NCBI GenBank assembly: GCA_016182555.1
Contig: JACPGJ010000005.1
Coordinates: 1 to 62,525 of the forward strand
From: Candidatus Kerfeldbacteria bacterium
GTDB taxonomy: Bacteria; Patescibacteriota; Patescibacteriia; UBA9570; XYC2-FULL-38-9
Reading direction: 5' to 3'
Length of the DNA: 62,525 bases
The position numbers were made by a program, and so were the translations under genes. Within the stretch, counting starts at the first letter, position 1, and each line of letters starts with the position of its first letter. Below are positions 5,013 through 60,759 of the stretch, piece by piece. The notes beneath the pieces were generated by a model. The model saw only the letters and a list, made by a program, of their open reading frames with translations. It was not told the origin of the DNA and ran no database searches.

Positions 5013-5666
5013 ATGAATACTCAACGCGTTCAAGAGAACTATATTATGTCTCGAGACGAAAAAGAGGCTTTTGTTGACGTTATTCGAAGATTTCCTTGGT
5101 TATATACTCCAATACTGCAACAATTAGAAGCATATATACAGAATGGGAATACGCTTGTTGATATCGGCTGTGGTGATGGTTACTTACTTCAACTTATTCA
5201 CGAAAAATTTCCTGCTTTGAAATTGACTGGAGTAGATGTAGATTCGTTTATGATAGATAGAGCCAGAAGATTACCGTTTACATTTATAAATACAGGTGTA
5301 GAAGATTTTTCCAGCACAGCGGACATTATTATTTCTAATTTAGCTTTACATCATTTTCAACAGCCTCAAACTATTCTGACCAAACTATATAGTCTTGCAA
5401 AGAACGTGTTGATTATCTCCGATCAAATACGGCCGCAAACTGTATCTGAATTACAAACACGATTAACAAAAAGAAAAGAGATGGTTGGTGAGAATGATGT
5501 TCTCTATTATAGAGAATCTGAAGAACAATCAATATTAGAAGCCTATAATAAAAACGAAATTATAGACTTGTTTACTACTCTTGCTCTACAATATAAAATA
5601 TATTTCTATGACACAGATTATTATGAACGATTTGTGGCCGTATTTGAAAAAGATAACCGTATGTGA
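5013..5666 (+). CDS. class I SAM-dependent methyltransferase
   Basis: Motif I LVDIGCGDGYLL, post-I GVDVDSFMIDRA, DIIISNLALHHF. Confidence 0.8.
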   Translation: MNTQRVQENYIMSRDEKEAFVDVIRRFPWLYTPILQQLEAYIQNGNTLVDIGCGDGYLLQLIHEKFPALKLTGVDVDSFMIDRARRLPFTFINTGVEDFSSTADIIISNLALHHFQQPQTILTKLYSLAKNVLIISDQIRPQTVSELQTRLTKRKEMVGENDVLYYRESEEQSILEAYNKNEIIDLFTTLALQYKIYFYDTDYYERFVAVFEKDNRM

Positions 5667-14095: not shown

Positions 14096-14167
14096 GCGCC
14101 CGTGGTGAAATGGATATCACAGCAGACTTCGGATCTGTTTTTGGGGGTTCGAATCCCTCCGGGCGCA
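14096..14167 (+). tRNA. tRNA-Arg (anticodon TCG)
   Basis: Hand-folded cloverleaf: acceptor GCGCCCG/CGGGCGC, D arm GTGA..TCAC, anticodon stem GCAGA/TCTGT with loop CTTCGGA, T arm GGGGG-TTCGAAT-CCCTC. CCA not encoded. Confidence 0.85.
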
Positions 14168-14187
14168 CATGAGGCCTTCGCCTCTTT

Positions 14188-14263
<76 letters not shown>

Positions 14264-23576: not shown

Positions 23577-23786
23577 ATGACAGATGGTTCACCCTCATTA
23601 AATAATCACCACGCTATGGAGCAACAACTCCGACACCAATACATTCAACGCGATTTGTTATTAATTTTGTGCCTTGTGGTTTTTATGCTGTTTGTGCTCT
23701 CGGCATTGAAATACGCGGATACGCATTATGGAGTTATTGATCGTTGGTCACACGCGTTCTATCAATTTGTATTGAGGCAAAAATAA
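23577..23786 (+). CDS. small hypothetical membrane protein
   Basis: 69-aa ORF with one hydrophobic helix (LLLILCLVVFMLFVLSAL). No other support. Confidence 0.3.
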   Translation: MTDGSPSLNNHHAMEQQLRHQYIQRDLLLILCLVVFMLFVLSALKYADTHYGVIDRWSHAFYQFVLRQK

Positions 23787-23835: not shown

Positions 23836-23907
23836 GTCCCTGTAGTTCAATGGATAGAACAAGGCACTCCTAACGCCTAGATGGTGGTTCGACTCCTCCC
23901 GGGGACA
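23836..23907 (+). tRNA. tRNA-Arg (anticodon CCT)
   Basis: Acceptor GTCCCTG/CGGGGAC, D arm GTTC..GAAC, anticodon loop CTCCTAA (31:39 is an A-C mismatch), T arm GGTGG-TTCGACT-CCTCC. No CCA. Confidence 0.8.
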
Positions 23908-23914
23908 CATCCAT

Positions 23915-23987
23915 GGGCCTGTAGCTCAGCTGGTAGAGCGCAGCATTCGCATTGCTGAGGTAAGCGGTTCAAGTCCGCTCAGGTCCA
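23915..23987 (+). tRNA. tRNA-Ala (anticodon CGC)
   Basis: Acceptor GGGCCTG/CAGGTCC with G3:U70, anticodon loop TTCGCAT, T loop GGTTCAAGTCC. No CCA. Confidence 0.9.
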
Positions 23988-24046
23988 CTACGGCATTTGC
24001 CAATGCGCATGGGTGCATGTAGAATATTGAAAGTTTTATGAATTAC

Positions 24047-24120
24047 GGACGGTTAGCTCAGTTGGTTAGAGCGCACGATTCACATTCGTGAGGTCACAAG
24101 TTCGAATCTTGTACCGTCCA
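24047..24120 (+). tRNA. tRNA-Val (anticodon CAC)
   Basis: Acceptor GGACGGT/ACCGTCC, anticodon stem CACGA/TCGTG with loop TTCACAT, T loop AGTTCGAATCT. Confidence 0.9.
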
Positions 24121-24139
24121 CATAGGTATATATTGAAAA

Positions 24140-24155
24140 TGTTCCACGTGGAACA
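24140..24155. repeat. perfect palindrome TGTTCCACGTGGAACA (copy 1 of 4)
   Basis: Core GTTCCACGTGGAAC at 24141-24154. Lies between tRNA-Val and tRNA-Ala, 4 nt before tRNA-Ala. Confidence 0.95.
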
Positions 24156-24159
24156 ATAT

Positions 24160-24236
24160 GGGCCATTAGCTCAGTTGGCTAGAGCGCTTCCATGGCATGG
24201 AAGAGGTCGTCGGTTCAAGTCCGATATGGTCCACCA
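24160..24236 (+). tRNA. tRNA-Ala (anticodon GGC)
   Basis: Acceptor GGGCCAT/ATGGTCC with G3:U70, anticodon stem CTTCC/GGAAG with loop ATGGCAT, encoded CCA. Confidence 0.9.
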
Positions 24237-24262
24237 CAGTAAAATAGATAAAACATAGATAT

Positions 24263-24697
24263 ATGGGATTAGAAATCTATCGTGCGGCAGAATTGCGCCG
24301 TACAGCGTATCGAGATATCAAAGATGGCCCAAAAGAAAGAAATATTGATGAGCAAATTGAAATTCATTTTCGTGGTGGCGACTTGTGTAGTGATGTTTTA
24401 GGTGGTTTGGTGCCACTCACTATGGTGCTAAGAAAAGAAAGATTTGAATCATTACGACCAATGCTTTCGTATGAAGAGTATGTTCGAACGAGTTTTAGTG
24501 GCTATGGTACGGAATATGTAGATGCTGTACTGGAAAGAAGTAATAAGAGCAAGATTTTGGAATATAATCGTCTTGTTTCAGATTTTAATGCGAGTATTCC
24601 AAGAATTGTTCAGGAAAAAGATTCGCAGGCAGTAAGCGTTTTTGAAACAAATATTACAGCTCTTTTTTCGCCGTCAATGGGTGAAACTATTCATTAA
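24263..24697 (+). CDS. hypothetical protein (144 aa)
   Basis: Clean ORF in a coding-dense context. No motif recognised. Confidence 0.5.
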   Translation: MGLEIYRAAELRRTAYRDIKDGPKERNIDEQIEIHFRGGDLCSDVLGGLVPLTMVLRKERFESLRPMLSYEEYVRTSFSGYGTEYVDAVLERSNKSKILEYNRLVSDFNASIPRIVQEKDSQAVSVFETNITALFSPSMGETIH

Positions 24698-24701
24698 TTT
24701 C

Positions 24702-24725
24702 AAATTGTTCCACGTGGAACAATTT
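24702..24725. repeat. perfect 24-bp palindrome AAATTGTTCCACGTGGAACAATTT (copy 2 of 4)
   Basis: Starts 4 nt after the stop of ORF 24263-24697 and ends 6 nt before the NUDIX ATG. Confidence 0.95.
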
Positions 24726-24731
24726 AAAAAT

Positions 24732-25178
24732 ATGTACAGAAAACCAAAAGCAGGAATAGATTATGTTGGTGTATCTATCGTCTTTTTTTGTCATGATGGG
24801 CAAGGTCGCGTTTTAATGGCAAAACGAAGCGAAAATGCTCGTGATGAACACGGTAAATGGGATATTGGCGCGGGAAAGGTAGAAGTCGGTGATTCGGTTG
24901 AAGAAACATTGCATAAAGAGATTCAAGAAGAATATTCAACAGAAGTGATCTCTTATGAATTTCTTGGTTTTCGAGATGTGCACCGTATGCAAAACGAGGT
25001 GCATACCCATTGGATTACTTTGGATTTCAAGGTGCTTGTCCGGCCGGAAAACGTTGCCATTGGTGAGCCAGCAAAATTTTCTGATATTGGCTGGTTTAAT
25101 AAGAACCAGATACCTTCAAATGAGCAGCTTCATTCACAACTGCCATTCTTTTTTCAGAAATATAGCGAACAGTTGTAA
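24732..25178 (+). CDS. NUDIX hydrolase
   Basis: ATG 24732 (in frame within track ORF 24642-25178). Nudix box GAGKVEVGDSVEETLHKEIQEEYS (GX5EX7REUXEEXGU pattern). Confidence 0.85.
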   Translation: MYRKPKAGIDYVGVSIVFFCHDGQGRVLMAKRSENARDEHGKWDIGAGKVEVGDSVEETLHKEIQEEYSTEVISYEFLGFRDVHRMQNEVHTHWITLDFKVLVRPENVAIGEPAKFSDIGWFNKNQIPSNEQLHSQLPFFFQKYSEQL

Positions 25179-25197
25179 ATGTTCCACGTGGAACATT
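25178..25197. repeat. perfect 20-bp palindrome AATGTTCCACGTGGAACATT (copy 3 of 4)
   Basis: Overlaps the last base of the NUDIX stop codon. Ends 17 nt upstream of the -35 of the next promoter. Confidence 0.95.
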
Positions 25198-25214
25198 GGA
25201 TTCACCAATTGCTA

Positions 25215-25243
25215 TTGACAAAACGTGAATTTTCGTGTAATAT
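25215..25243 (+). promoter_or_regulatory. sigma70-like promoter
   Basis: TTGACA (25215-25220), 17 nt, TAATAT (25238-25243), 39 nt upstream of ATG 25283. Confidence 0.6.
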
Positions 25244-25282
25244 TTATAATTGTAACTACCTAATAATTTCATTTAAAAAAAT

Positions 25283-25450
25283 ATGGGATGTGGAGAAAAT
25301 TGCGCTTGCAGCGCGGTAAAGGAAGCAGAACTTCCAACAATGGAAATGAAAGACGCACACGGATGCTCTTCAGATGAGTGCAAGAACGGTGAATGTGAGA
25401 ACTGCAAAGCTGAAGGTGAACAAAAAGAGCATGCAGGCCACTGCTGCTAA
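25283..25450 (+). CDS. small Cys/His-rich protein, metallothionein-like (55 aa; below the ORF-track cutoff)
   Basis: Hand translation: MGCGENCACSAVKEAELPTMEMKDAHGCSSDECKNGECENCKAEGEQKEHAGHCC* (10 Cys, 3 His, CxC/CxxC/CC clusters). It has its own promoter and terminator. Confidence 0.55.
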   Translation: MGCGENCACSAVKEAELPTMEMKDAHGCSSDECKNGECENCKAEGEQKEHAGHCC

Positions 25451-25471
25451 CGGTATTCAGTAAACAAATAG

Positions 25472-25499
25472 GGCCAGCATAGCGCTGGCTTTTTTGTTT
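25472..25499 (+). terminator. rho-independent terminator
   Basis: GCCAGC (25473-25478) / GCTGGC (25484-25489) stem, 5-nt loop, TTTTTTGTTTT. Confidence 0.75.
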
Positions 25500-25507
25500 T
25501 TCACAAA

Positions 25508-25525
25508 TTGTTCCACGTGGAACAA
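25508..25525. repeat. perfect 18-bp palindrome TTGTTCCACGTGGAACAA (copy 4 of 4)
   Basis: Immediately after the terminator of the Cys-rich ORF, between convergent genes. Confidence 0.95.
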
Positions 25526-26765: not shown

Positions 26766-26850
26766 TCAGCAATAACGTGAAGATGGTTTCATTGACAGCA
26801 GTCTCATTTTGAATTATACTGAAACTATACCATTTTACTTTTTTAATAAT

Positions 26851-27480
26851 ATGGTTAAAAAACTGAAACGTATACAAGTAGAAGAAAAACTCAAAACCCT
26901 CGGACTACTCGTCTTTACTCCACAACAGTTCAAAAATATTTTTGGAGTGACCAAAGAAACGGCTTCCGTGTTTATTTCTCACAATATCAGCGTAGGGGGT
27001 ATTTTCATCAAGCTGCGCAATGGGTTCTACACGGTGAAAGATGCCTACGTTTCGCATTTTTTTATAGCAAACAAACTCTATGAACCTTCATATATTTCCA
27101 TGGCTACCGCGCTGTCCCATTATGGTATTATTCCGGAAGTCGTCTACACCATCACATCCATCACGATAAAAATTTCCCGCGAATTCAACACCCCAAAAGG
27201 CGTTTTTCTTTACCAACATATCAAAAAAGAAGCATTCACGGGCTATAGCTTACAACATATTGATAACACCAAAGTACTGATCGCTGCACCAGAAAAAGCG
27301 TTGGCCGACTATCTGTATTTTGTGGATTTAAAACGAGTTTCTTTAAACGATCGATTGGAATTAAAAAACATCAAAAAATCTGTGCTTCTGGAGTTCGTCA
27401 AACTATTCGAACGCCCGAGCATGTTACAATTAGTTGACCATATATATGTTGCATATAAAAAACCTCGAACAATTTACTGA
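26851..27480 (+). CDS. abiEi: AbiEi-family antitoxin-like protein (type IV TA), copy 1
   Basis: ATG 26851 (track TTG 26809), preceded by TTGACA-17-TATACT. N-terminal wHTH-like segment (VFTPQQFKNIFGVTKETASVFISH...LRNGFYTV), then PSYISMATALSHYGIIPE typical of AbiEi. Directly upstream of AbiEii. Confidence 0.7.
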   Translation: MVKKLKRIQVEEKLKTLGLLVFTPQQFKNIFGVTKETASVFISHNISVGGIFIKLRNGFYTVKDAYVSHFFIANKLYEPSYISMATALSHYGIIPEVVYTITSITIKISREFNTPKGVFLYQHIKKEAFTGYSLQHIDNTKVLIAAPEKALADYLYFVDLKRVSLNDRLELKNIKKSVLLEFVKLFERPSMLQLVDHIYVAYKKPRTIY

Positions 27481-28171
27481 TCGATCACAAACCACCATGA
27501 TGAATGTGGTGCGGGAGTATTGCCAGCATCTTTTTTTATCACATCTCTATAAACAGCCGGGATCAGAAAAATTGCTCTTTAAGGGCGGTACGGCGCTTCG
27601 TATTGTTTTTGGGAGTCCACGATATTCTGAAGATTTAGATTTTACTGGTACAAACATTACGGAGCGAGAAATAGAAGATATTTTTACTGATACCTTGGCG
27701 AGTGTAGAAAAAACCGGTATACAGGTGACGCTAGAGGAAGGTCAACCAACGAGTGGTGGCTATATTGGCATTATGTCGTTCAATGCATACGAAAAAACCA
27801 TGCCAATACAAATTGAAATTTCGCTGCGGAAGGGTCGACCAGTAAAAGGCACCGTTGCGCTTATTGATAATGAGTATATTCCAGCATACACCCTGGTGCA
27901 TTTATCCAAGGAATCCATTGTGGAGGGAAAGATGCAAGCCCTTATCAATCGCCATAAACCAAGGGATTTTTATGATTATTTCTTTTTATTGTCGGGCAAT
28001 TATCCATTGGTGAAAGAAAAAAAGAATCTCACTATTGTTCAGCAGCTACTTGATGAAACAAAAATTAATTTCCGAAGCGAATTGAGAGAATTTCTCCCTG
28101 CCAGTCACTCCATGCACTTACGCGATTTTAAGAAGGTATTGGAACAGAAAATTAGCATTTTCCTTGGGTAA
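27434..28171 (+). CDS. abiEii: AbiEii/AbiGii-family nucleotidyltransferase toxin (DUF1814), copy 1
   Basis: LLFKGGTALRIVFGSPRYSEDLDFTG is the hallmark GGTAL...R.SEDLDF motif. Overlaps the abiEi 3' end. Confidence 0.85.
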   Translation: MTIYMLHIKNLEQFTDRSQTTMMNVVREYCQHLFLSHLYKQPGSEKLLFKGGTALRIVFGSPRYSEDLDFTGTNITEREIEDIFTDTLASVEKTGIQVTLEEGQPTSGGYIGIMSFNAYEKTMPIQIEISLRKGRPVKGTVALIDNEYIPAYTLVHLSKESIVEGKMQALINRHKPRDFYDYFFLLSGNYPLVKEKKNLTIVQQLLDETKINFRSELREFLPASHSMHLRDFKKVLEQKISIFLG

Positions 28172-36982: not shown

Positions 36983-37555
36983 ATGAATAATCCCCTTATT
37001 TTGCTAGAAAGATCAAAAAAAACAGTCTTTACAACAAAAGAACTGGCTATTCTTTGGGGTGAACAAAATATCCAAACATTAAAATCGAAAGTGAACTACT
37101 ATGTAAAAAGAGGTAAAATCATCCACATTAGAAAAGGGTTGTATGCAAAAAATGAGCACTATAACCAACATGAACTTGCGGCCAGTATTTTCGTACCATC
37201 ATATATTAGTTTTGAAACCATCCTACAACAAAATGGAATAAATTTTCAATATTACGAAACAATTTTTGTTGCCGGCATCCGATCCGCTGCTGTTGCTATT
37301 CAAAAACAAAAAATACTTTTTCATAAAATGAAAAAAAACATTCTCTACAACACCAATGGGCTTATTCATAAAGAAACATACACAGAAGCATCAACAGAAC
37401 GGGCCGTGTTAGACCTTCTCTATCTGAACAAATTAGAACATTTGGATAATCCGCGAGGGGTTGATTGGAACAAGTGCGAAGAATTGACTCCACTCTACAA
37501 TAATCAACAACTTATAAAACGTTTAAAAATTTTACGAAAACAATTCGCAGAATAA
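36983..37555 (+). CDS. abiEi: AbiEi-family antitoxin-like protein, copy 2
   Basis: N-terminal wHTH-like VFTTKELAILWGEQNIQTLKSKVNYYVKRGKIIHIRKGLYA, then PSYISFETILQQNGI. Immediately upstream of AbiEii. Confidence 0.7.
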   Translation: MNNPLILLERSKKTVFTTKELAILWGEQNIQTLKSKVNYYVKRGKIIHIRKGLYAKNEHYNQHELAASIFVPSYISFETILQQNGINFQYYETIFVAGIRSAAVAIQKQKILFHKMKKNILYNTNGLIHKETYTEASTERAVLDLLYLNKLEHLDNPRGVDWNKCEELTPLYNNQQLIKRLKILRKQFAE

Positions 37556-37563
37556 TTATCACT

Positions 37564-38265
37564 ATGCTCAACAAAGAAAAACATCATCGAATTTTGCTCC
37601 AAATCACCAAAGATATGTATACAAATATTCGCATTTCCTCGCTGCTTGGTTTTAAAGGTGGTACAGCTGCATATTTGATTTATAATCTACCACGTTTTTC
37701 GGTTGACCTTGATTTTGATTTAATTGACCCAACACCCGCGCGTATTGCCACAGTACATAAAGAGGTGCGTACAATTCTTCAGCACTATGGAACAATACAA
37801 GATGAATACAAAAAAAATTATACGTTGTTTTTTTTGTTATCGTACGAAGAAAAACATCATCATATTAAAATAGATATTTCAACTCGTGGCTGGCACAATG
37901 AGTATACTGTTCAGGAATACTTGGGTATTCCAATGTTGGTTATGAACCCGTCATATATGTTTGCAAACAAACTGGCAGCGCTTACTGATAGAAAAAAAGT
38001 ATTTATGCGAGATGTGTATGATATTTGGTATTTTTTTACGAGGCGTTGGGAAATTGAAGAATCGGTCATTCAAAAACGCACAGGAAAAACAGTGAAGCAA
38101 TATATTACTAGCGATTGTGTGCCGGTAATTGAAAAAATTAAAAATGAAGAACTCCTGCTTGGACTTGGCGAATATCTCAATGAATCACAGAGAAGTTTTG
38201 TAAAAACAAAATTGAAGCAAGAAGTATTATTTCAGTTGCGTATTTTGGCCGATTCATTGAAATAA
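37564..38265 (+). CDS. abiEii: AbiEii/AbiGii-family nucleotidyltransferase toxin (DUF1814), copy 2
   Basis: LLGFKGGTAAYLIYNLPRFSVDLDFDL hallmark motif. Confidence 0.85.
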   Translation: MLNKEKHHRILLQITKDMYTNIRISSLLGFKGGTAAYLIYNLPRFSVDLDFDLIDPTPARIATVHKEVRTILQHYGTIQDEYKKNYTLFFLLSYEEKHHHIKIDISTRGWHNEYTVQEYLGIPMLVMNPSYMFANKLAALTDRKKVFMRDVYDIWYFFTRRWEIEESVIQKRTGKTVKQYITSDCVPVIEKIKNEELLLGLGEYLNESQRSFVKTKLKQEVLFQLRILADSLK

Positions 38266-39196: not shown

Positions 39197-39242
39197 TTGA
39201 CATATTGGATATTTTTGGATACACTGTGATTATAATATCCAA
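39197..39242 (+). promoter_or_regulatory. fic promoter with TTGGATAT/ATATCCAA repeats
   Basis: TTGACA (39197-39202), 17 nt, TACACT (39220-39225). TTGGATAT 39205-39212, TTGGATAC 39215-39222, inverted ATATCCAA 39235-39242. Confidence 0.6.
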
Positions 39243-39252
39243 ACAGAGCTTT

Positions 39253-40281
39253 ATGCTTATTTTAGAAAAAATAGATGCGCTTCGTGAAGCTATTCAGACA
39301 TTTCGACCATTTAATGATAGCCTGCAAAAAACACTGCAAGAGCAATTACGCATTGAATGGACATACAATTCTAACGCGATTGAAGGGAACACGCTCACGC
39401 TCGGAGAGACCGCATTTTTTTTGCGTGAAGGGTTAACGTCAGAAGGTCGGCCGTTGAAAGATTATTTGGAAGCAAAAAACCACGCTGAAGCAATCGACCG
39501 CTTGAATGATATTGTTCAAGGAAAGCGTTCAATAACAGAGTCACTCATTAAGGAGCTTCATGGTGTGTTGATGAAAGGCATGGATTTTACTATTGCCCGT
39601 GGAATGGACGGTCAGATGATTCATAAACGCCTACATGTCGGTGAATATAAAAAGCAACCGAATCATGTACTCACACTTTCTGGAAAGATTCACGAATACG
39701 CCGATCCCATTCATGTGCACGATGAAATGGAAGCATTGCTGGATTGGGTCGGGTCGGAAACAACCATGCACCCCGTTGAACGAGCAGCGCGTTTCCATTA
39801 TCGCTTCGTGAGTATTCACCCGTTTGATGATGGCAATGGGAGAATGAGTCGATTGTTGATGAATTTACTCCTGACGCAGGCAGGGTATTACCCTTGCATT
39901 ATTCAAAATGCCCATCGTCGAAAATATATTCAAACGCTAGAAGAAGCGGACAGTTCTCAAAATGATACCACTTTTATACAGTTTGTTGCAGATGAATTGC
40001 TTGCGACAGAGCAAAAAGTGTTCGATATTATTCAAGGGAAAGTTGTGGCACTTACTCAAGCAACGACCATATTGAATAGCGTGGAGCGCCGAGAACGTAT
40101 TATGCATGTGTTGCGTACTGCCGATTCCCCACTGGCGATGGGACAAATGAGTGAGCTGTTGCCAGAGCTTAAGCGACCAACGCTGAAAAAAGATTTGCAG
40201 CAATTAGTGCGGGAGCGCTTGGTGAGCTCTTATGGCAAAGGGAGAAACATGTTGTATGCGGTACCACAAAAGAAAATCTAG
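39253..40281 (+). CDS. Fic family protein (class II, N-terminal inhibitory motif, C-terminal winged helix)
   Basis: ATG 39253 within the track ORF. Fic motif HPFDDGNGRMSRLL. Inhibitory-helix-like SNAIEGN ((S/T)xxxE(G/N)). C-terminal wHTH-like RPTLKKDLQQLVRERLVSSYGKGRN. Confidence 0.9.
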   Translation: MLILEKIDALREAIQTFRPFNDSLQKTLQEQLRIEWTYNSNAIEGNTLTLGETAFFLREGLTSEGRPLKDYLEAKNHAEAIDRLNDIVQGKRSITESLIKELHGVLMKGMDFTIARGMDGQMIHKRLHVGEYKKQPNHVLTLSGKIHEYADPIHVHDEMEALLDWVGSETTMHPVERAARFHYRFVSIHPFDDGNGRMSRLLMNLLLTQAGYYPCIIQNAHRRKYIQTLEEADSSQNDTTFIQFVADELLATEQKVFDIIQGKVVALTQATTILNSVERRERIMHVLRTADSPLAMGQMSELLPELKRPTLKKDLQQLVRERLVSSYGKGRNMLYAVPQKKI

Positions 40282-49987: not shown

Positions 49988-51424
49988 ATGAAAATTCAAA
50001 TTACCCAATATATTCAAGAGCAATTAGTCCGTGCGCAAGATCGGTTGAGAGCAAATACCGTCTCTTCTGTCGGGATCGTGTACCCTGAGCGTCACATTTT
50101 CATAACCCTGAAAAAAAAAATTCATGATTTTTATGCGAATGTTTCTCAGGAACGGTGGGTCGTTATTCCAGGGCTGCGCGGTGTAGGAAAAACCACGGTT
50201 GTCTCACAGCTTTATTTTTATATTGTTCAAGAAATGAAGGTTGCACAAAACCGCGTGTTATATGTTTCTCTGGATGAAGTTGAAGACTTGGGCGGGTCGC
50301 TGCAAGATGTGTTAGCGAGTTATGAATATATTCTTGGTCAAAGTTATGAATCACAACAAGAACCGTTGTTTTTATTATTAGACGAAGTACAAGTAGATAC
50401 TCGCTGGGCCAAAACACTTAAAACACTCTATGAACGTTCTCATACAGTATTTGTGTTGTGCACGGGGTCGTCTGCAGTGGAGCTACAGTCGACAGCCGAT
50501 GCAGAACGCCGAGCCATTTTCCATAAAATGTTTCCCATGAGTTTTTCCGAATATCAAATGATCAAAAATCAGGTGTATCCCGAAAACGGTTTACAACAGA
50601 GTTTGATTAACGCCGTGTATTATGCGAACTCTGTTCAAGAAGCGCACCAACAATTGTCCGTTCTCGATCAACAAATTCAAAAGTATTGGTCGATGATTGA
50701 TCAATTCGATATACAAGAATATTTTTCTATCGGCACATTACCATTCGCTATTGGGCGCACAAATGAATACCAAGTGTATCAAGCCATTCTACGATTGTTA
50801 GACCAGGTGATTATGAAAGATATTCAGAGCATGAGTAATTTTGAATATGAGACAACGCTCAAAATAAAATCGCTACTGTATTTGTTAGCAGACAGTAATG
50901 ACGTGCTGTCGTTTAGCACTATCGGGAACACCATTGGTTTACTTCGCCTAACACTCAACGATATTTTTGAAGCATTAGAAAAAACCGAATTACTGATACG
51001 GGCGTATCCGCATGGATCAAATACAGGTAGAGCCACAAAGCCTTCAAAATTTGTATTTATGAGTCCGGCAATTCGCCAAGCATTAACCATTATCTCTGGC
51101 AAAAAAGCGACAAATGAAACTGCGCGTGGGCATTTGTTGGAAGATGTTGTGGGTTTGCATGTATACAGAGAATTTGTGACGCAGCATAAAGGTTCGTTGA
51201 CGTATGATGCTTCTGAAGGTGGAGCGGACTTTATTTTAGAATTGCACAATCAACGACAAATTGTTATTGAAGTGGGTATGAATAAAAAAGACTCGAAACA
51301 AGTGCAAAAAACAATGAATAAAATTGGGAGTGATTACGGTATGGTGATTAGCCAGCAAGAATTGAATGTAGATGCAGAGAAAAATATGTTGTTTCTTCCG
51401 TTGAAGGTGTTTTTGTTGATGTAA
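49988..51424 (+). CDS. AAA-family ATPase (AAA_14/DUF4143-like), paralog 1
   Basis: Walker A GLRGVGKTT, Walker B LLLDEVQ. C-terminal EGGADFILE...IVIEVG segment. Confidence 0.7.
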   Translation: MKIQITQYIQEQLVRAQDRLRANTVSSVGIVYPERHIFITLKKKIHDFYANVSQERWVVIPGLRGVGKTTVVSQLYFYIVQEMKVAQNRVLYVSLDEVEDLGGSLQDVLASYEYILGQSYESQQEPLFLLLDEVQVDTRWAKTLKTLYERSHTVFVLCTGSSAVELQSTADAERRAIFHKMFPMSFSEYQMIKNQVYPENGLQQSLINAVYYANSVQEAHQQLSVLDQQIQKYWSMIDQFDIQEYFSIGTLPFAIGRTNEYQVYQAILRLLDQVIMKDIQSMSNFEYETTLKIKSLLYLLADSNDVLSFSTIGNTIGLLRLTLNDIFEALEKTELLIRAYPHGSNTGRATKPSKFVFMSPAIRQALTIISGKKATNETARGHLLEDVVGLHVYREFVTQHKGSLTYDASEGGADFILELHNQRQIVIEVGMNKKDSKQVQKTMNKIGSDYGMVISQQELNVDAEKNMLFLPLKVFLLM

Positions 51425-51547
51425 GGTAGAAAAAATTCCATACAAGTCGTGTAATGAAACGGTGAAAATGGGTAGCTTGACAATATATTCGATCATGATA
51501 GAATATATATAAGAATGTATCGTAATTTGGCTAATTAGAGATAAAAT

Positions 51548-52780
51548 ATGATTGATAAAATCCTCGAACAATTAAATCCTTGGTGGTCAGCACAGCCTAT
51601 AGACAACGGAATACTTCGAACCAAGTATCTAGATATTTTGAATGAAAACCGAACGAATAAAGAGGTGATATTTTTATTGGGTTCTCGGCGCGTGGGCAAA
51701 ACAACTATTATGAAGCAATGGGTGGGGGAGTTAATTACCAAGTATGGCGTTCAGCCAAAACAAATTTTGTATGTCTTGTTGGATCATCCAGAATTAGATA
51801 ATTATTCTATTTCACAAATCATTGAAACAGCCCGCACGCTGGCTGGCGAAGTGAAGTATGTATTATTAGACGAAATTCAATATCGCTCTGGTTGGGATCA
51901 AGAATTGAAGGCGTTATATGAAACGCAGAAGATGAAGTTTGTTATTTCGGGTTCCGCAATTACGGTACTTTCAAAACAGAAGTCATATCTCACGGGCCGC
52001 TATCTTAAATATATTGTACACTCATTGAATTTTACAGAGTTTCAGCAATTCTCGGCTAAGAAAACAATACAAGATTATTTAACTATTGGCGGATATCCCG
52101 AATATGTATTACGAAATAATCCGCAATATTTATTAGATTTAATCGACCATATTGTTTATAAAGATATTGTGGAAGTCTATGGCATTCGTCATCCGAAAGC
52201 GATTGCTGACTTGCTGCTTATTTTGGCTCGAAGTGTCGGGCATAAAATTAGTTTATCTAAAATTTCACGCACGTTACAGATATCCATTGATACAGTGAAA
52301 GAATATATTCAGCATTTGGAAGAGGTCTATCTTATTCATGAAGTACCAAAATTTTCCCGTTCATTAAATGAACAATTGTATAATGAAAAAAAGTATTATT
52401 TTTATGATACGGGGTTATGTAGTGTATTAAACGCAGAACAACAGATGGGTGCATTAGCAGAGAATGCAGTGGCGAATTACCTCAAAAAGCAACAACGAAC
52501 TTTCTTTTATTACTATGCGAATAAACGCGAGTGTGATTTTGTGATTGAACAGTTTGGTGGTGTCGCAGAAAAAACATATACGCCGATTGAAAGTAAATTT
52601 GATCCTGAAGGGAATAGTATAGAATGGGATGACAAACGATTGAGTGGTTTTTATGAAGCTATTGATAAACTCCATCCAGAACACGCCAGTATTATTACAT
52701 CGAAACAGCACGGAGAGAAAAAATACGGCCATACTTCTTTAGATATGATTTCATTAGAAGTATTTTTGAGTGCGCAATAA
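51548..52780 (+). CDS. AAA-family ATPase with DUF4143-type C-terminal PD-(D/E)xK-like domain, paralog 2
   Basis: NPWW start typical of the family, Walker A GSRRVGKTT, Walker B VLLDEIQ. C-terminal ECDFVIE...PIESKF (D...ExK). Confidence 0.75.
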   Translation: MIDKILEQLNPWWSAQPIDNGILRTKYLDILNENRTNKEVIFLLGSRRVGKTTIMKQWVGELITKYGVQPKQILYVLLDHPELDNYSISQIIETARTLAGEVKYVLLDEIQYRSGWDQELKALYETQKMKFVISGSAITVLSKQKSYLTGRYLKYIVHSLNFTEFQQFSAKKTIQDYLTIGGYPEYVLRNNPQYLLDLIDHIVYKDIVEVYGIRHPKAIADLLLILARSVGHKISLSKISRTLQISIDTVKEYIQHLEEVYLIHEVPKFSRSLNEQLYNEKKYYFYDTGLCSVLNAEQQMGALAENAVANYLKKQQRTFFYYYANKRECDFVIEQFGGVAEKTYTPIESKFDPEGNSIEWDDKRLSGFYEAIDKLHPEHASIITSKQHGEKKYGHTSLDMISLEVFLSAQ

Positions 52781-59673: not shown

Positions 59674-60759
59674 CTAAACCTTTTTATACCTCGCACTTCT
59701 GCCTTGACCTATTCTTTCTATTTTTTTCAACTTTAACAATACCTCAAGCGCTTGCTTGACGGTTGGTCTTGGTATATTCGTTTCCTTAACAATTTCTCCC
59801 GTTCTGGAAATTTCGATTTTTTCGAAATATTTCCAAACGATAAGTTGTTTTTCAGACAATAACTTTTCAATATTTTCTTTTGAAAGTAAATCAATTGCTG
59901 ACTGAGATTGCTTTTGTAAAACAGTAAAGAAAAAATCAAGCCATGGCGCAATGTCTTCCTTTTTTGTCCCAAAAGTTTTTTGACTGCGTCTAAGCGCAAG
60001 GTAATATTCTGTTTTGTTATCCTCCACAAGTTTTTCGTGCGAAACATAAGGCATGTATAGATACCCGCTTTGCAGTAATAGCAGGTTTGTCAAAACTCTG
60101 GAAATTCTTCCGTTGCCATCCTGAAAAGGATGAATTTTTAAAAATTCAACTAAAAAGTTGGCGATGAGTAGTAGCGGGTGGTATTTTTTCTCTGTAAGTG
60201 AGGCATTTGTTGATTCCACAAGTTCTGACATTTCTTTCGGTGTAAGGTGCGGCGAGGTTGGATTGAAAATAATCCCAACTTCCTTGCCTGTGCTGTCATA
60301 CGCAACTACTTTATTTTCTCCGAATTTGTAATCACCTAGATGACCTTGGTCTTTGTCGGAGTATTTTAAAAGCTCTTTGTGAAAATGTTTGATTGAGCTT
60401 TCATTGAATTTCAAATTGTTCCAGGAGTTAAAAATATTTTCTAGGAGTTCATAATAGCCTTTGACCTCCTGCTTGTCGCGGTCGGCAAATTTTTGAATGT
60501 TAATGCCGCGCATTACTTTCTCGATATCCTCATCGGAGAGTTGGACACCCTCAATACGAGTAGATGCGCCAGTTGAGGTAATCAAAACAGAGCGCTTGAG
60601 GCGCCCGAGGGCTTGTGGGCTTAATTGTGCGCCCGTTACCCAACTTCCTTTAAGTTCGTCAATTTTGGCGATTTTTGAGATAATTTCAGCAGGGATATTG
60701 CTGAATCTTTTTGCAAATTTGTTTGCAACAGGGCTATTTTTTTGGCTTTTTTTAGTCAT
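59674..60759 (-). CDS. Fic family protein (class II, C-terminal winged helix), paralog of 39253-40281
   Basis: HPFQDGNGRISRVL Fic motif. STRIEGV inhibitory-helix-like motif. C-terminal RPTVKQALEVLLKLKKIERIGQGRS. Confidence 0.9.
   Translation of the reverse strand: MTKKSQKNSPVANKFAKRFSNIPAEIISKIAKIDELKGSWVTGAQLSPQALGRLKRSVLITSTGASTRIEGVQLSDEDIEKVMRGINIQKFADRDKQEVKGYYELLENIFNSWNNLKFNESSIKHFHKELLKYSDKDQGHLGDYKFGENKVVAYDSTGKEVGIIFNPTSPHLTPKEMSELVESTNASLTEKKYHPLLLIANFLVEFLKIHPFQDGNGRISRVLTNLLLLQSGYLYMPYVSHEKLVEDNKTEYYLALRRSQKTFGTKKEDIAPWLDFFFTVLQKQSQSAIDLLSKENIEKLLSEKQLIVWKYFEKIEISRTGEIVKETNIPRPTVKQALEVLLKLKKIERIGQGRSARYKKV

Follow-up and report, generated by a model that had tools for sequence, protein, structure and literature searches.

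What are four short, perfect palindromes, lying within 1.4 kb of one another beside a tRNA cluster, doing in the genome of an uncultured bacterium? The stretch of DNA that carries them, referred to here as the window, is 62,525 nucleotides long and is one whole contig (JACPGJ010000005.1 of GenBank assembly GCA_016182555.1) of a metagenome-assembled genome of Candidatus Kerfeldbacteria, derived from groundwater metagenomes. Its translation initiation factor IF-2 shares 73% identity with the protein of an entry named "Patescibacteria group bacterium" and 68% with the Candidatus Kerfeldbacteria protein. An initial annotation of the window, made from the sequence alone, had offered three explanations for the palindromes: operators of a single dimeric regulator forming a small regulon, RNA hairpins acting as processing or stability signals in a tRNA-mRNA co-transcript, and recombination sites or elements resembling repetitive extragenic palindromic (REP) sequences that bracket cassettes. 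None of these options names the sites as parS. Judged from sequence comparison, the four palindromes are very probably chromosomal parS sites, on which ParB (Spo0J) would be loaded for chromosome segregation and for the loading of condensin.

The 14-mer GTTCCACGTGGAAC is present in the window in four exact copies, starting at positions 24141, 24707, 25181 and 25510, with no additional match at up to two mismatches. Its chance expectation is 0.11 and four copies were attained in none of 100 shuffles. All of the copies share the 16-mer TGTTCCACGTGGAACA, starting at 24140, 24706, 25180 and 25509, for which there is no fifth copy in the 62.5 kb at up to three mismatches, the nearest other sequence having four. 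The four occurrences in 1.4 kb that had been reported by eye, with no further copy, are therefore confirmed by the mismatch-tolerant scan, and the coordinates and lengths that had been given for the palindromes (16–24 bp) are exactly right. The first site, parS1 (24140–24155), is an exact TGTTCCACGTGGAACA that forms a 16-bp palindrome in the 38-nt spacer between tRNA-Val(CAC) (24047–24121) and tRNA-Ala(GGC) (24160–24236). At parS2 (24702–24725, core 24706–24721) the palindrome is extended to 24 bp and lies in the gap between the open reading frame (ORF) ORF144, with its stop at 24697, and a NUDIX gene that begins with the ATG at 24732 (Pfam NUDIX, E = 8e-15). The 20-bp palindrome of parS3 (25178–25197, core 25180–25195) lies between the stop codon of the NUDIX gene (25176–25178), the final base of which it meets in its extended form, and the −35 box at 25215 of a sigma-70-like promoter-like site (25215–25243) belonging to a 55-residue Cys-rich ORF. 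Finally, parS4 (25508–25525, core 25509–25524) is an 18-bp palindrome positioned between two convergent terminator-like hairpins, the plus-strand terminator of the Cys-rich ORF (25470–25492) and a terminator on the minus strand (25555–25531). As the positions of the tRNAs, ORFs, promoter and terminators confirm, every copy is intergenic and sits at a unit boundary with the flanks originally described.

The 16-mer has been reported before in other bacteria. It is identical to the sites named parS2 and parS3 in Pseudomonas aeruginosa, where it is likewise a perfect palindrome (PMC4368675, Table 1), and it is the sequence given for the parS of Pseudomonas putida in a review (PMC7022226). The same review gives TGTTCCACGTGGAACG for Myxococcus xanthus and tGTTNCACGTGAAACa as the general form of parS, a consensus for which it cites Lin and Grossman (1998) and Livny et al (2007). 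All four copies in the window are 16-bp inverted repeats that match tGTTNCACGTGAAACa; the shared 16-mer is identical to the M. xanthus sequence at 15 of 16 positions and to the canonical TGTTTCACGTGAAACA at 14 of 16.

An exact scan for TGTTCCACGTGGAACA over one genome per GTDB species, with 8-kb tiles taken around the matches, returned at least 119 tiles. The many phyla among the matches listed include Bacteroidota, Acidobacteriota, Verrucomicrobiota, Planctomycetota, Myxococcota, Nitrospirota, Firmicutes, Actinobacteriota and Patescibacteria, and there are also matches in Gammaproteobacteria, a distribution so broad that a universal site was suspected. Among the 119 tiles listed, the ParB box II signature GERRxRA is found in 25, a ParA-type Walker motif in 28 and the DnaA Walker motif in 17. 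A ParB or DnaA signature is present in 41 of them, whereas 27 control tiles cut from other DNA all lack every one of the three; 33 of the 119 contain between two and five copies of the motif. By our own estimate, a genome of several Mb with a single parB or dnaA would put the number of such tiles expected by chance at well under one. The six ORFs with the ParB signature that were checked all proved to be full ParB proteins (Pfam ParB_N and HTH_ParB, with ParB_C in five), while the two ParA ORFs checked lie directly upstream of parB with the motif just outside the operon. The motif is, in other genomes, linked to parAB or the origin region. Stop-free stretches cover 93–94% of any sequence, so that a comparison of genic and intergenic placement across the phyla based on them is uninformative.

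Conservation was also followed at the locus itself. ORF144 (24263–24697) has no homologue among 5.8 billion proteins, and IF-2 was therefore used as the anchor for orthologous loci. Approximately 20 kb was taken around each of seven IF-2 homologues (66–69% identity; L123–L129), six of which could be evaluated, as the relevant side is not covered in L124. Two further loci, L130 and L131, came from a pattern scan of metagenome contigs in which a parS had to precede the 5′ end of tRNA-Ala(GGC); with a GC content of 27–29% and a bactofilin 37–42% identical to that of the window, these are from more distant relatives. The bactofilin-DAGK-infB-rbfA-DHH-clpP block is syntenic in all seven of the IF-2-anchored relatives, and in four of the six that could be evaluated a parS cluster lies between this block and the CorC/thioredoxin genes. 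There are two exact sites in L125 (assembly GCA_964344485.1), four exact sites within 1 kb in L127, one exact and one single-mismatch site in L128 (assembly GCA_043813585.1), and one exact and three single-mismatch sites in L129; no parS site was seen within the fetched range of L123 or L126. In both L130 and L131 two sites flank tRNA-Ala(GGC) beside bactofilin-DAGK. Absence of the motif from orthologous boundaries in close relatives had been proposed at the outset as an observation that would count against its significance; six relatives (L125 and L127–L131) have two to four sites, exact or with one mismatch, within the same neighbourhood. These sites are all outside genes, except for one in L129 that is at a gene junction. 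One of the L128 sites lies between tRNA-Val and tRNA-Ala(GGC), as in the window, one in L125 abuts tRNA-Ala(GGC), and the junction of parS1 with tRNA-Ala(GGC) recurs in L125, L128, L130 and L131.

In the alignment of these loci the 16-mer forms a conserved island within spacers that have diverged. It is the exact 16 bases that are kept, and the one-mismatch variants in the relatives are not accompanied by compensatory changes. The genes between the sites, a comparison of which had also been suggested, differ among the relatives, being weakly conserved (NUDIX, 27–32% identity) or lacking a counterpart (ORF144, the Cys-rich ORF and ORF91). The site is thus retained while its flanks diverge, and since the most conserved element of the region is a non-coding 16-mer, it can be argued that it is the target of a sequence-specific protein.

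We favour parS because the sequence is identical to published parS, because in other phyla it is found linked to parAB and dnaA, and because it is conserved at the same locus in relatives. The arrangement, with all four sites packed into 1.4 kb and no other copy in the 62.5 kb, also follows the pattern of parS clusters. A ParB dimer uses its helix-turn-helix domain to read the 16-bp inverted repeat, then binds CTP, closes as a clamp and slides onto the neighbouring DNA. Closely spaced parS sites build a single large partition complex, which is moved by the ParA ATPase and from which the origin region is loaded with SMC condensin. It would seem likely that ParB does bind the sites in the window; ParB dimers would load at each of the four parS, bind CTP and spread as sliding clamps, the resulting partition complex would be moved by ParA, and SMC condensin would be recruited to the origin region. 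Having several sites within 1.4 kb would provide one strong loading zone. The cluster would then be situated in the origin-proximal part of the chromosome, presumably with a ParB of canonical specificity encoded on another contig of this organism.

The closest likeness is to P. aeruginosa and P. putida, with which the window shares the identical 16 bp and a small cluster of about four sites. In P. aeruginosa four parS sites form the cluster nearest oriC. In Pseudomonas, parAB and oriC have been mapped near parS and binding of ParB has been demonstrated, whereas the contig carries neither parAB nor oriC, and the window differs further in that its sites are all intergenic and three of the four palindromes are extended to 18–24 bp. 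The sites belong to the same 16-bp inverted-repeat family as the Spo0J/parS sites of Bacillus subtilis, with the 14 matches to TGTTTCACGTGAAACA noted above, and one half-site of the window motif, TGTTCCAC, is that of B. subtilis. The B. subtilis sites are scattered over the origin-proximal region, mostly within genes, while those in the window form a tight intergenic cluster. In M. xanthus, where the sites are also multiple and clustered, the array consists of 22 copies of TGTTCCACGTGGAACG and adjoins parAB, whereas the cluster in the window adjoins tRNAs and small accessory genes. A myxobacterial tile from the scan (L024) has three copies of the motif beside parAB. The Noc-binding site (NBS, ATTTCCCGGGAAAT) and the sites of plasmid or KorB-type ParB proteins are likewise palindromic targets of the ParB family. 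Their core sequence differs from that of chromosomal parS, and the window sites, unlike them, have the CACGTG core of the chromosomal form. With infB, nusA, tig and tRNA genes on it, the contig is chromosomal. The element is an already known one in a new host, the same in sequence as the four-site oriC cluster of P. aeruginosa, like which it would work; it is not a new kind of system, and only its description in Patescibacteria had been missing. No paper was found in the literature searched that links parS or ParB with Patescibacteria, the candidate phyla radiation (CPR), Parcubacteria or Saccharibacteria. If the assignment is right, the canonical ParB-parS code would have been kept unchanged in a deep-branching, genome-reduced lineage, and this puzzling set of palindromes could be turned into routine annotation, as the centromere-like sites of the chromosome. 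For a genome fragment of an uncultured Patescibacterium, the cluster would probably serve as a landmark of the origin-proximal region, and a gene for a canonical ParB is predicted to lie outside this contig.

Several observations weigh against this assignment. Signature screening of all ORFs of at least 80 residues, with Pfam scans of those that had no other assignment, revealed no gene for ParB, ParA, SMC or DnaA on the contig, and none of the four was found in the ~20-kb loci of the relatives. What the contig does carry are ordinary chromosomal genes, including infB, rbfA, nusA, tig, clpP and those for RNase Y, thioredoxin and its reductase, and pyruvate:ferredoxin oxidoreductase. There is a switch in gene orientation at ~23.5 kb with a local minimum of the cumulative GC skew, but the skew tracks the gene strand in each block along the contig, so that neither the minimum nor the switch is diagnostic of an origin. 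The window has no cluster of DnaA boxes. A candidate at the strand switch, TGTTCCACG, resembles a DnaA box at seven of nine positions; a replication origin there is not supported, there being no box cluster, no dnaA and a skew that follows the strand. The sequencing runs that carry the window sequence, among them the groundwater runs SRR12113422 and SRR12113419, are DNA metagenomes only.

The remaining point against concerns the length of the palindromes. In a survey of 169 sites from all loci, measured against a null of shifted flanks, 16 sites have at least four extra complementary pairs beyond the 16 bp, as against 1.5 expected, and 48 have at least two, as against 15.9. Extension past the 16-bp ParB site is therefore commoner than chance, and recognition by ParB alone is insufficient to explain it. 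In Patescibacteria the palindromes reach 28–36 bp (L027:4462–4497 and 5403–5430, L130:2578–2609 and L131:3288–3323). At three other sites (L070:6103–6150, L037:7939–7970 and L078:7186–7217) the parS is at the tip of a hairpin with flanking runs of A and T, giving the look of a bidirectional intrinsic terminator. One speculative explanation, which we consider unlikely, is that in the very compact genomes of these Patescibacteria parS has been selected for gene and tRNA boundaries and for longer palindromes, combining the loading of ParB with a role as transcript-end hairpin or insulator, and that the DNA between the sites is a tolerated hotspot of gene turnover. If true, such dual-role sites would reconcile the sliding of ParB clamps and the loading of condensin with transcription. 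These over-long and sometimes bidirectional-terminator-like parS palindromes may merit a systematic look.

Of the explanations other than parS, the nearest to it is binding of the sites, as operators, by a dedicated transcription factor such as a TrmB-like helix-turn-helix protein, whose small regulon would take in the tRNAs and the genes for ORF144, NUDIX and the Cys-rich product. The sites are palindromic and intergenic, parS3 is 20 bp upstream of a −35 box and a TrmB-like gene is located 465 bp downstream of parS4. In two relatives, moreover, a TrmB gene (L125:1963–2724 and L128:6886–7653) ends exactly 1 nt before a parS. These two are orthologues, with 58% identity, but the TrmB of the window shares only 22% identity with them, and TrmB paralogues are common, three being present on this contig (25989–26765, 38280–39044 and 47962–48765). 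The adjacency in L125 and L128 is probably inherited synteny, which together with the abundance of paralogues accounts for it, and TrmB was rejected as the binding protein. Nor are the positions relative to promoters consistent, as one site is between tRNAs, one is between two terminators and only parS3 is near a promoter-like site. With the 16-mer identical to parS and linked to parAB or dnaA across phyla, we regard a dedicated regulon as very unlikely. The initial suggestion of operators was nevertheless right in one respect, in that the target is almost certainly that of one dimeric helix-turn-helix protein; the role would be segregation through ParB and not the control of a small regulon, and the likeness of the CACGTG core to an E-box, also remarked on at that stage, is coincidental. 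ParB itself can influence nearby transcription, and some regulatory side-effect of the sites by this route is possible. That the lineage lacks ParB and that another helix-turn-helix protein reads the sites is unlikely.

The second alternative is that the palindromes act as RNA, in a transcript shared by the tRNAs and the mRNAs, where they would be signals for processing, stability or termination. No promoter had been evident among the tRNAs, ORF144 and the NUDIX gene, and indeed there is no plus-strand promoter-like site between 24026 and 25214, so that co-transcription is plausible. The copy at parS2 can form a 10-bp stem of −10.9 kcal/mol that is more stable than those of shuffled sequences (z = −4.6), and some parS in other phyla are at the tip of terminator-like palindromes with flanking A and T runs. 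However, the hairpins are weak, with free energies between −7.1 and −10.9 kcal/mol, and the other three are no better than shuffles (z = −0.6 to −2.0). There is no U-tract on the plus strand, and the only terminator flagged at any of the sites, at the first copy, is on the non-coding strand. Intrinsic terminators, which also are short intergenic palindromes, have a GC-rich stem followed by a U-tract; the window sites have neither this stable stem and tract nor conservation at the level of structure, as it is the exact 16 bases and not the ability to pair that is conserved, without covariation. A search of the window against Rfam returned only tRNAs and no family at the palindromes, and the same sequence is found beside parAB in unrelated phyla. 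The hairpin explanation, which fared poorly on its folds, its U-tracts and its conservation, appears highly improbable.

A reading as REP-like repeats, or as recombination sites bracketing mobile single-gene cassettes, is suggested by the one small gene in each interval, the orphan ORF144 and the differing gene content between sites in the relatives, but it is scarcely credible for a motif that equals parS and adjoins parAB or dnaA in other phyla, that is not dispersed and numerous as REP elements are, with all four copies inside 1.4 kb and none elsewhere in the 62.5 kb, and that has no integrase or recombinase adjoining it, the sole transposase (IS110) being 23 kb away. Apparent palindrome-to-palindrome joints, found in contigs from four groundwater runs with ~20 matching letters on the shorter side, were rejected as evidence of recombination because what matches is the palindrome itself, the contigs differing in the DNA between sites.

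The genes around the parS cluster have some features of their own. The Cys-rich ORF (25283–25450) encodes 55 residues, nine of them cysteines (MGCGENCACS...GHCC). It comes with a promoter and a terminator of its own and gives no match in Pfam; it may be a metallothionein-like metal-binding peptide. In L125 a 35-residue Cys-rich ORF on the minus strand (~2806–2913) occupies the equivalent position beside parS, and the site there is just past the terminator of this ORF. A DNA copy of ORF144, ~85% identical, is present on a 1176-nt contig from a different groundwater study (run X4). Between the bactofilin gene and the tRNA cluster is an ORF of 69 residues with a hydrophobic stretch (23577–23786), which is conserved at 31–44% identity in the same position in five relatives. 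The tRNA clusters Arg(TCG)-Lys(CTT) (14096–14263) and Arg(CCT)-Ala(CGC)-Val(CAC)-Ala(GGC) (23836–24236) have kept their positions with respect to the infB block in L123, L125, L128 and L129; in L125 the tRNAs are separated by inserted genes and tRNA-Val(CAC) is duplicated.

Elsewhere on the contig, toxin-antitoxin and defence-like genes are abundant (293–1405, 26809–28171, 36983–38265, 39205–40281, 49988–52780 and 59674–60759). There are two AbiEii toxin genes (PF08843), each of which follows an ORF without a Pfam match in the position of an AbiEi-type antitoxin. The contig also encodes two Fic/DOC proteins and two AAA_14/DUF4143 ATPases, and the IS110-family transposase is at its start.

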